The notes: generated by a model not told the origin, from the letters alone. DNA of 64,000 nt from an uncultured Bacillota bacterium (GCA_949300535.1 CASGEQ010000080.1:1-64000), one strand, 5' to 3'; numbered from the stretch's first letter, positions 1,618 through 2,702 are shown. Made by a program: numbers and translations.

Positions 1618-1760
1618 ATTTTATTGCTCTCCTTTGATTTCATCCAAAGATACAAGTCGTGAATAGACGCACAATACATATATGTTATCAAGAAAGCGAT
1701 TTTTGATCTGGTAGTAAGAACTTTTTGCGAGAGAATTGTGGGTGAAAATGATATGATAAA

Positions 1761-1910
1761 CCATTCTTGACAGCAACGGGAATGTTGTGGTACAATACAA
1801 GCACGATGCGGCGCCGCAGGCGGACAGACGGACATCGCATCGGCAGCTTTAATCTGTTCCGTTATCACGTATTTTTCGGTATGCAAACAGGTCTGCGCCG
1901 TAGCAGGGAA
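1761..1910 (+). pseudogene. Degenerate duplicate of the RHS core 3' region (orphan-module homology stub)
   Basis: ccattcttgacagcaacgggaatgttgtggtacaatacaagcacgat is about 90% identical to nt 182-228 of the intact gene (ILDSNGNIVVEYKYD vs ILDSNGNVVVQYKHD). Similarity then decays (atcggca.cttaatc.gttccgtta.c) and the frame runs into a stop. Confidence 0.6.
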
Positions 1911-1956
1911 TTGTTATTAAGAAAACGCTGATGTATTATTTTCTCTATATATTGAC

Positions 1957-2202
1957 TTGTGTTGTTGCTGTATTTACTGTCTTTTCCGGTGGCGGCGGCG
2001 AGGACGGATGGGGTGTAGTGTAAGGTCGATTGGTTTGGCGGCCATTGCTGTTGTCCTCGGGATTTTCTTGTTGTGCTGCTTCTTGCTGAAAACGAGGCAT
2101 AATATTTTATATGGTATTTTAATTACTTTATGCGTTGTTCTTATCGTTGCTGTGCTTTGTATTATACTTGAAAGTATAATCGGACCAATCGAGCTTCCTT
2201 GA
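1957..2202 (+). CDS. Hypothetical small Cys-rich membrane protein (possible displaced toxin remnant or spurious)
   Basis: 81 aa, MCCCCIYCLFRWRRRGR... plus two hydrophobic helices. Lies directly after the decayed RHS core stub. No clear RBS. Confidence 0.2.
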   Translation: MCCCCIYCLFRWRRRGRMGCSVRSIGLAAIAVVLGIFLLCCFLLKTRHNILYGILITLCVVLIVAVLCIILESIIGPIELP

Positions 2203-2263
2203 ATGAATTGACGGACGATTTTCTTTATTTTTATGTTTATCATCCGATCGCGGAGATTGAAAA

Positions 2264-2629
2264 ATGGAATTATCCTTCTATCAAAAAAAATTGCATGATG
2301 AAATCGTGGAACCTATGCTCGAATATCGCAGAGAGGTGGGGAAAGACAGCGGATATGGGCTATTTCAGATATTGCAATGCAGGAATATTCTGCGCGATTA
2401 TCTCAAACGCCTGAATCGGTTGCGGAATCAATCGGAAGGAGCTGTGTTATGCGAAGTAAAACGAACCGTCTTGCGGCTGAACAAGCTGAATGATAAGACG
2501 GAAGGCTGTCTGATCGAAACGGATGCCAGAGAAAGTATCTGGGAACTCATTCAGACTGCCGCGATCGATTGCGGATTAAAATTGTCCGACGAGGAAGAAG
2601 ATATTACATCGGAATGGCGGGAATGGTAA
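2264..2629 (+). CDS. Hypothetical soluble protein, candidate orphan immunity protein
   Basis: 121 aa helical protein with a GGAG RBS 9 nt upstream. Sits in the AT-rich block downstream of the orphan RHS stub. Followed by a terminator. Confidence 0.4.
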   Translation: MELSFYQKKLHDEIVEPMLEYRREVGKDSGYGLFQILQCRNILRDYLKRLNRLRNQSEGAVLCEVKRTVLRLNKLNDKTEGCLIETDARESIWELIQTAAIDCGLKLSDEEEDITSEWREW

Positions 2630-2702
2630 TGAGGACGCGCCGCGATCGTCAAGCAATTATGCTTTTACCGCAGGGGAAACGCAATATTAACGGAGATCAT
2701 TG

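Follow-up and report, generated by a model that had tools for sequence, protein, structure and literature searches.

The left part of the analyzed window, a 64,000-nt stretch of DNA from an uncultured Bacillota bacterium, appears to hold two successive decaying orphan RHS modules (nt 1-2202) that abut an unrelated conserved gene, a reading to which we assign a probability of about 0.78. A sequence-only reading had proposed that an older RHS toxin/immunity module left its footprint downstream of another one, and this proposal is supported, as a decayed core fragment is followed by a gene whose intact homolog directly follows the toxin domain in contig L097. The same reading had named the next gene, which encodes a 121-aa protein, as a candidate stranded immunity gene; this assignment was overturned by a comparison of strains and by two reciprocal co-occurrence tests. 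The features are listed in Table 1. Scans for Rfam families and tRNA genes gave no match anywhere in the window.

Table 1. Features of the RHS region and its flank, strain breakpoints, and segments of the window that align with contig L097
Feature	Position in window (nt)	Strand	Remarks
RHS core 3' fragment (orphan module 1)	1..513	+	5'-truncated about 15 nt left of the window start; frameshifted
Promoter-like element inside the core coding sequence	188..217	+	TTGACA-18-TAGAAT, TG before the second hexamer, 11/12
Toxin domain CT1, Gly-rich, hydrophobic	514..1011	+	weak Gly-zipper match
Putative immunity gene of module 1, 173 aa, membrane N-terminus	1004..1525	+	8-nt overlap with the CT1 stop codon
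Bidirectional intrinsic terminator	1578..1615		17-bp stem, -31.4 kcal/mol
3' fragment of a 129-aa transcription-activator-like gene	1621..1750	-	phrog_248, E = 9e-6
Decayed copy of core nt 182-348 (orphan module 2)	1761..1895	+	indels, frameshifts, stops
Copy of the promoter-like element	1767..1796	+	TTGACA-18-TACAAT with TG, 11/12; in the best-preserved 47 nt
Spacer	1896..1930	+	weak similarity to L097 1076-1110 in the alignment; no BLAST match
Pseudogene of a small three-helix membrane protein, immunity position of module 2	1931..2202	+	80.8% nucleotide identity to the P0270 gene
Left limit of homology, L006/L007 type	1971		strain breakpoint
Left limit of homology, L090/L092 type	2123		strain breakpoint
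Intact 121-aa DUF5713 gene	2264..2629	+	PF18977, E = 6.4e-6; part of the conserved flank
Bidirectional terminator	2701..2750		between the DUF5713 gene and the convergent pmbA-like gene
pmbA-like gene	2769..3968	-	convergent with the DUF5713 gene
RHS core, aligned with L097 63-481	142..512		77% identity
Terminator and tail of the minus-strand 129-aa activator-like gene, aligned with L097 1424-1602	1568..1750		89.6% identity
Decayed core, first part, aligned with L097 105-149	1763..1807		88.9% identity
Decayed core, second part, aligned with L097 267-317	1848..1895		76.5% identity
P0270 gene, aligned with L097 1111-1376	1931..2198		80.8% identity

The RHS modules and their remains

The window opens inside the 3' end of an RHS gene that reads ...FTYDKDGRVV...YVYRKDAQGNIAAILDSNGNIVVEYKYDSWGNH...RYYDPEVGRF...NLYAYCGNNPVMNVDENGNAWWE (in frame 1 from nt 142 onward, before that in frame 2), and nt 142-513 match the TIGR03696 profile (Rhs_assc_core) with 80.8 bits against a cut-off of 32.5 bits (E = 7.6e-23). 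A 1-nt deletion lies near nt 141, where the window has AATAATGCACCTATG and the contigs L100/L101 have AATAATGCGACATAT (NNATYFYRKD); the core of the latter is intact and reads ...IKYNNATYFYRKDAQGN. The same deletion is present in contig L093, which extends 659 nt to the left of the window. Homology to the RHS gene of L100 begins only at nt 644 of L093, and the sequence to the left of this point is unrelated and has stop codons in every frame; a terminator and the final 48 nt of an ArdC-N/MPTase-PolyVal gene resembling that of L090 are also located there. Module 1 is itself a 5'-truncated, frameshifted orphan, so the earlier description of this upstream cassette as active does not hold.

No full-length 'main' rhs gene was found upstream of nt 1761-2202 in the sequence that reaches 659 nt to the left of the window (L093), and one may lie further upstream than this contig extends. 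Among 64 related RHS core ends from metagenomes, few belong to full-length genes (1950-2215 aa; L115, L138, L143, L153). Some of these genes are followed by short orphan modules, and most of the other related core ends are isolated short fragments.

The putative immunity gene of module 1 (Imm1), a 173-aa ORF, is identical in L093, L095 and L096 and has no family match in Pfam or NCBIfam. More generally, besides the RHS core, searches of Pfam, NCBIfam, PHROGs and PADLOC gave no match for the CT1 toxin domain or for the 81-aa and 173-aa ORFs. The 129-aa activator-like gene, of which the window retains a fragment, is whole in L097 and forms the downstream flank of the RHS module there.

The local alignment of nt 1701-1960 against nt 1-520 revealed that 42 of 47 positions (89%) are identical between nt 1761-1807 and core nt 182-228. 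The score of this alignment (69) is far above those of shuffled sequences (18.3 +/- 2.3, maximum 30). With gaps, the similarity to the core reaches nt 1895 (core nt 348), and the second part of the copy taken alone scores 31.6 (shuffles 11.0 +/- 2.2, maximum 19), a value attained by none of 500 shuffles. At the peptide level, TILDSNGNVVVQYKHD and HRIGSFNLFRYHVFFGMQTGL, which lie in different frames, match AILDSNGNIVVEYKYD...NHIGNLNPFRYRGYYYDTETGL of the core; the match switches frame and meets stops, thus the copy is frameshifted and stop-bearing. It is also found by tblastn with the core peptide (E = 0.001). The same arrangement is present, without any difference, in the independent metagenome contigs L091, L093 and L094, thus it is not an assembly artefact. 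The repeat at nt 1761-1895 is a real, decayed RHS core fragment, and the formal alignment bears out the earlier claim that nt 1761-1910 repeat the core at about 90% identity over the first 45 nt and then degenerate. The claim that this is the last part of the core was inaccurate, since the similarity goes no further than core nt 348 and the conserved core extends to about nt 513 (...NPVMNVDENGNAWWE). Some 165 nt at the core end, with the end-of-core motif, are lacking in the copy. The next gene begins after a gap of just 35 nt, in which there is neither a boundary motif nor a toxin domain. Tentatively, this spacer may consist of the decayed last ~25 nt of a deleted toxin domain and a degraded ribosome-binding site.

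The gene behind the spacer was previously described as a Cys-rich 81-aa membrane ORF. A search with this ORF returned two proteins only, an identical 64-aa call and P0270 (89 aa, 80% identical). P0270 reads MSYVLYILICVAAVFTISSGGGGSEYGWGVRLIGLATIAVV..., its N-terminus matching the window frame at nt 1931-2023 (MYYFLYILTCVVAVFTVFSGGGGEDGWGVV*) and its remainder matching the 81-aa ORF (nt 1957-2202). In the nucleotide alignment with L097, the window has a 5-nt insertion near nt 2013-2017 that leads to a stop at nt 2021-2023, and it has lost the AAGGAGG ribosome-binding site of the L097 gene. The same 5-nt insertion and frameshift are found in L006. We therefore rejected the 81-aa ORF as a gene: it is a mechanical ORF, produced where an 89-aa gene with its start at nt 1931 runs on out of frame after a frameshift. 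A membrane gene was indeed present at this place, and the Cys-rich start is a wrong-frame reading of its pseudogene.

In L097, the P0270 gene starts 11 nt past the stop codon of an ORF that encodes an RHS core and a toxin domain, with the AAGGAGG ribosome-binding site in the gap. In the preceding ORF, the stretch ...YIYRKDAQGNITAILDSNGNIVVEYKYDSWGNH...NLYAYCGNNPVMRVDENGNAWWEW leads into a hydrophobic, Gly/Ala-rich domain of 200 aa (CT2, L097 nt 483-1100). P0270 directly follows an RHS core end and a toxin domain, thus it occupies the immunity position, and by this position it is a putative immunity protein (Imm2). It comes from a single lineage (L097, L098 and L099 are 100% identical), and neither a protein search nor a metagenome scan found further homologs. 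CT1 and CT2 are unrelated past the shared ENGNAWWE boundary, and so are the 173-aa Imm1 and P0270, a pattern typical of polymorphic toxin systems. The alignable sequence shared by the window and L097 ends at the P0270 stop codon. We also considered L097 as a paralogous locus of the same genome, which is unlikely given that L097-type and L093-type contigs come from different samples.

Examined as an orphan module, nt 1761-2202 contain a core fragment homologous to the 3' part of the rhs core; an in-frame run through the boundary motif into a toxin domain was not found. The gene behind the fragment is a homolog of P0270, itself placed among immunity genes by position only, but it is a pseudogene. 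The immunity-position gene of module 2 hence cannot 'still protect' the cell.

The DUF5713 gene and its neighborhood in related strains

The intact gene downstream of the pseudogene encodes a 121-aa protein that matches the DUF5713 HMM (positions 9-107 of 107) with 26.9 bits, just under the Pfam cut-off of 27.3 bits. Its close homologs P0001 and P0003 bear the precomputed PF18977 label, and by sequence similarity the protein can in practice be regarded as a DUF5713 member that is marginally under the formal cut-off. DUF5713 homologs of this protein comprise 370 cluster representatives at E <= 1e-3. The conserved motifs of the family are LN.LNE, LIETD.RE and the strictly C-terminal DITEEWREW, the last two being shared by the 121-aa protein; the EEWREW tail may be a docking motif. 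The AlphaFold2 model (pLDDT 93) consists of five helices, and this helical bundle has no match to a solved immunity fold. No described immunity family was recovered for the ORF by sequence or by fold, and a profile search of PDB sequences gave noise only. The literature searched on DUF5713, PF18977 and DUF4240 in connection with immunity yielded nothing useful; among these papers, DUF5713 is mentioned only in a vaccine-design study.

The GGAG ribosome-binding site ascribed to this gene is present in the sequence at nt 2252-2255, 8 nt before the ATG at nt 2264, and the bidirectional terminator said to close the block is likewise confirmed as an inverted self-match forming a hairpin of -40 kcal/mol with flanking A- and T-runs. 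The statement that the two ORFs behind the repeat are AT-rich like the upstream cassette is correct in part: the GC content is 0.40 in nt 1931-2202 and 0.45 in the 121-aa ORF, vs 0.26-0.40 in the upstream toxin/immunity pair, and that of the rest of the window is 0.545.

Analysis of genomic context revealed no association between DUF5713 and RHS genes in either direction. With the core peptide as a tblastn query, the same query that detects the decayed copy in the window, no RHS core was found within 8 kb of DUF5713 genes at any of 80 genome loci (989 kb; gut Clostridia MAGs, Pedobacter, Lysobacter, Nevskia and others). Reciprocally, a DUF5713 profile detected no family member in 494 kb around the 64 related RHS core ends (0/64; E = 2.7e-45 for the positive control). 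By clustering six flanking ORFs per locus, we found no recurrent neighbor family at the DUF5713 loci, with no cluster of more than 4; the nearest neighbors are diverse housekeeping genes such as those for phosphoribosyltransferases, HTH regulators, sigma factors and glycosidases. The family is thus widely conserved away from RHS loci, an outcome that the sequence-only reading had itself named as refuting its proposal.

The DUF5713 domain is always C-terminal. Fusions with LRR domains (three cases), Imm26 (one case) and DUF4240 (one case) were observed, and some members in Bacteroidota and Proteobacteria have lipoprotein or signal peptides. In L001, the DUF5713 homolog is located among small unknown ORFs, including a gene for a DUF4304 protein. 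The C-terminal position, the fusions, the lipoprotein signals and the DUF4304 context are hints that fit a protein-binding or inhibitor role, and the family has perhaps one chance in four of being some kind of immunity or inhibitor protein.

Two further strain types share the right part of the locus with the window. The L006/L007 type is 98.8% identical to the window, with homology only from nt 1971, and carries an ABC ATPase and a DUF3899 membrane protein upstream of this point. The L090/L092 type is 99.8% identical, with homology only from nt 2123, and carries AAA_14/DUF4143 and ArdC-N/MPTase-PolyVal genes together with small ORFs upstream. Neither upstream region contains RHS sequence. Both breakpoints fall inside the membrane pseudogene, and the DUF5713 gene is retained, together with pmbA and tldD, by all three strain types. 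In the comparison with L006, substitutions number 4 in the 232 nt of the pseudogene part and 2 in the 930 nt of the DUF5713 gene plus pmbA (p = 0.017), the DUF5713 gene by itself having 1 in 366 nt. An interpretation of L006 as the empty site was rejected, since this strain keeps the 3' two-thirds of the frameshifted membrane gene. The site is a hot spot of recombination and insertion, and this is why the DUF5713 gene has RHS debris as its neighbor. The relic adjoins the DUF5713 gene in all three strain types, and an old link between the two is just conceivable.

Proposed history of the locus and the promoter-like element

The window has the order core, CT1, Imm1, the usual downstream flank (cut at nt 1750), decayed core from position 182, about 35 nt, and the Imm2 pseudogene. 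Module 2 (nt 1761-2202) would represent the remains of an older L097-type module, namely 135 nt of decayed core and the inactivated cognate immunity gene. Incoming DNA (core end, CT1, Imm1 and flank) would have recombined into a resident core-CT2-Imm2 locus, with the junction at about position 182 of the resident core, and the resident copy would have been pushed downstream and have decayed there. An internal deletion of ~800 nt would have taken out the remaining core together with nearly all of CT2, and the Imm2 membrane gene would then have been inactivated by the 5-nt insertion. We infer both the order of these events and the CT2 deletion. The displacement of C-terminal rhs modules, with which this arrangement agrees, is a described mechanism (PMC8125069, PMC3967940).

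A separate feature of the RHS core is a promoter-like element that occurs both in module 1 and in the decayed copy. In a consensus scan, it is a sigma-70-type match with an extended -10 region. It is encoded by the peptide (L/I)D(S/K)xGxxVV(E/K/Q)Y, the last YD repeat of this RHS clade; an earlier repeat of the same peptide type has no promoter match. Both hexamers are kept in 13 of 17 distinct related sequences with the peptide varying, and the third base of the -10 hexamer, a tolerant position, absorbs the amino-acid changes (TAGAAT, TAAAAT, TACAAT). Synonymous third positions agree with the window at 26 of 29 sites in the hexamer codons vs 299 of 548 elsewhere (p = 1.5e-4, the loci being not independent). 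Orphan core homology starts just upstream of the -35 hexamer at window nt 1761, in L112 (twice) and in L109, and in L112 an orphan core start directly follows the terminator of the previous module. The region contains 8 promoter-like matches, with no excess over shuffles (6.5 +/- 2.5). That the core carries a built-in sigma-70/sigma-A-type promoter, conserved at synonymous sites, is a tentative suggestion.

Several other explanations of the locus were weighed. The 121-aa protein could be the stranded immunity protein of the displaced cassette, with the 81-aa ORF as (part of) the toxin or an accessory membrane protein. This gene shares the strand of the decayed core and begins 369 nt after it, with a good ribosome-binding site and a terminator behind it; 97% of equally long windows elsewhere in the sequence have a higher GC content than the 0.448 of this gene, and its relatives include the Imm26 and LRR fusions and several lipoprotein signals mentioned above. 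Against this stand the wide conservation of the family away from RHS loci, the end of module homology before the gene and the retention of the gene by RHS-free strains. We rejected the ORF as a stranded immunity gene, and that it serves as the immunity gene of this displaced module is very improbable. Chance similarity or an assembly chimera might be invoked on account of the short high-identity stretch; with scores far above shuffles and an identical arrangement in three independent assemblies, the probability of such an origin is negligible.

The decayed core and the Imm2 relic might also have been imported separately after module 1, for instance on a mobile element that carries ArdC or through an illegitimate recombination event in the regulator gene, instead of being a resident module pushed downstream. 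Such an import would agree with the regulator fragment (nt 1621-1750) being cut exactly where the decayed core begins, and with the conjugative-element genes in the left neighborhoods of L090 and L093. However, the 3' part of the relic is common to L006 and L090, which are without module 1, thus the relic stood beside the DUF5713 gene before the upstream rearrangements; it is also more decayed than module 1. We consider separate import unlikely, if clearly less so than the immunity role of the 121-aa protein. A further proposal complements the displacement of a resident module: the core-like stretch may have been kept as an exapted promoter of the DUF5713 gene. The 11/12 match with the extended -10 region is located in the only well-preserved 47 nt, related cores conserve the element beyond the need of the peptide (26/29 vs 299/548 synonymous positions), and four orphan fragments start just upstream of it. 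On the other hand, the compared loci are related by descent, L006 and L090 keep the DUF5713 gene without the element, and promoter-like counts in the region do not exceed those of shuffles, so we regard this exaptation as possible yet doubtful. The whole left part of the window may belong to a mobile element.

Relation to known systems and implications

The arrangement resembles the orphan rhs-CT/rhsI modules of Salmonella LT2, E. coli and the bee-gut bacteria Snodgrassella and Gilliamella (PMC3967940, PMC8125069) in that a core fragment lies behind another rhs 3' end. As in these modules, a gene in the immunity position follows the core fragment, the fragmentary frame is without initiation or export signals, and the toxin/immunity pairs diverge past a sharply defined boundary motif, ...VDENGNAWWE in this case. 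The locus differs from them in that the toxin domain of module 2 is gone and its immunity gene is frameshifted, with nothing functional left; that no full-length rhs gene is adjacent in the known sequence, the upstream module being an orphan as well; and that the hosts are gut Clostridia-type organisms and not T6SS-bearing Proteobacteria.

Contact-dependent inhibition loci have orphan cdiA-CT/cdiI arrays, in which displaced toxin-tip/immunity pairs stand in tandem and keep a conserved upstream stub (reviewed in PMC9086364). The logic is the same, whereas these loci use another family of carrier protein and another boundary motif, and neither CdiA nor CdiB is found here. Gut bacteria also possess orphan immunity genes and acquired interbacterial defence islands (mentioned in PMC8125069). 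The likeness to these consists in a small stand-alone gene beside toxin-system debris and in the setting of the L001 homolog among small unknown ORFs; unlike defence islands, the 80 DUF5713 loci have no recurrent toxin partner and no island structure.

The phenomenon is well known, and nt 1761-2202 are an ordinary example of a known process. The case demonstrates the extent of RHS cassette turnover, as two nested orphans are all that is left of the locus; in one of them the loss of the toxin domain was followed by that of the immunity gene, and the site differs among strains that are 98.8-99.8% identical. For annotation, it teaches that a small ORF behind RHS debris is not to be called an immunity gene by position alone.

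What is new here are toxin and immunity sequences, so far unclassified, in gut Clostridia-type bacteria, and possibly the embedded promoter. Two leads emerge: Gly/Ala-rich hydrophobic RHS toxin domains paired with small membrane proteins, neither belonging to any family, and the promoter-like element embedded in the RHS core. If functional, this element would keep displaced toxin/immunity cassettes transcribed, and in this window it would also transcribe the neighboring DUF5713 gene.

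Upstream RHS fragment and strain-variable DNA

Relative to the related RHS core loci L100 and L101, one nucleotide is missing at window ~139-145, which shifts the RHS reading from frame 2 to frame 1. Because the same deletion recurs in an independent assembly, at positions 798-804 of L093, a contig matching the window flank, the upstream RHS fragment, which is also 5'-truncated, is a pseudogene. The description of this cassette as "active" in the sequence-only reading is not supported.

Three unlike upstream contents were found among strains that are 98.8-99.8% identical downstream. 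By this comparison, the site left of window 1971 / 2123 is a hot spot of rearrangement, and it may mark where a conjugative element ends. The protease genes on the other side of the DUF5713 gene seem to have routine housekeeping roles. Scans of the entire 64-kb window for tRNAs and Rfam families gave no hits.

Features of the window and of contigs matching its flank
Feature	Location	Strand	Description
Promoter-like element	window 188-217 and 1767-1796		TTGACA-18-TAnAAT with TG, near-consensus
PmbA/TldD-like protease pair	window 2769-5321	minus	399 and 447 aa; convergent with DUF5713 gene
Upstream content, RHS orphans	window left of 1971 / 2123, extended further left by L093 1-659
Upstream content, ABC ATPase and DUF3899 membrane protein	L006 1-1033
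Upstream content, AAA_14/DUF4143 and ArdC-N/MPTase-PolyVal gene	L090 1-4136

RHS core element and toxin domains

The promoter-like element lies within the last YD repeat of the RHS clade (the window and L100-L163). Its synonymous sites are conserved: among these related cores, third positions agree with the window at 26/29 sites in the hexamer codons versus 299/548 elsewhere, in loci related by descent. The element also occurs just downstream of the starts of several orphan modules (e.g. L112 7992 and 9655; L109 2122).

Both RHS toxin domains (window 514-1011 and, in the metagenome contig L097, 483-1100) are Gly/Ala-rich and hydrophobic, with one weak glycine-zipper match, and each is partnered by a small membrane protein (window 1004-1525; L097 1111-1380). 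Neither domain and neither partner was assigned a family by Pfam, NCBIfam, PHROGs or PADLOC (0/4). These putative pairs may represent new membrane-targeting toxin/immunity systems.

DUF5713 proteins

An almost invariant DITEEWREW forms the very C-terminus of the DUF5713 proteins (window 2264-2629 and homologues P0005-P0268), and DUF5713 is always the final domain in fusion proteins (partners LRR, Imm26 and DUF4240). Some members from Bacteroidota and Proteobacteria carry lipoprotein signal peptides. LRR domains are the commonest fusion partner elsewhere, and the next gene past the flank of the L097 RHS module (1869-2273) encodes a small LRR protein (LRR_4, 30.8 bits); this co-occurrence may reflect either coincidence or a functional link.
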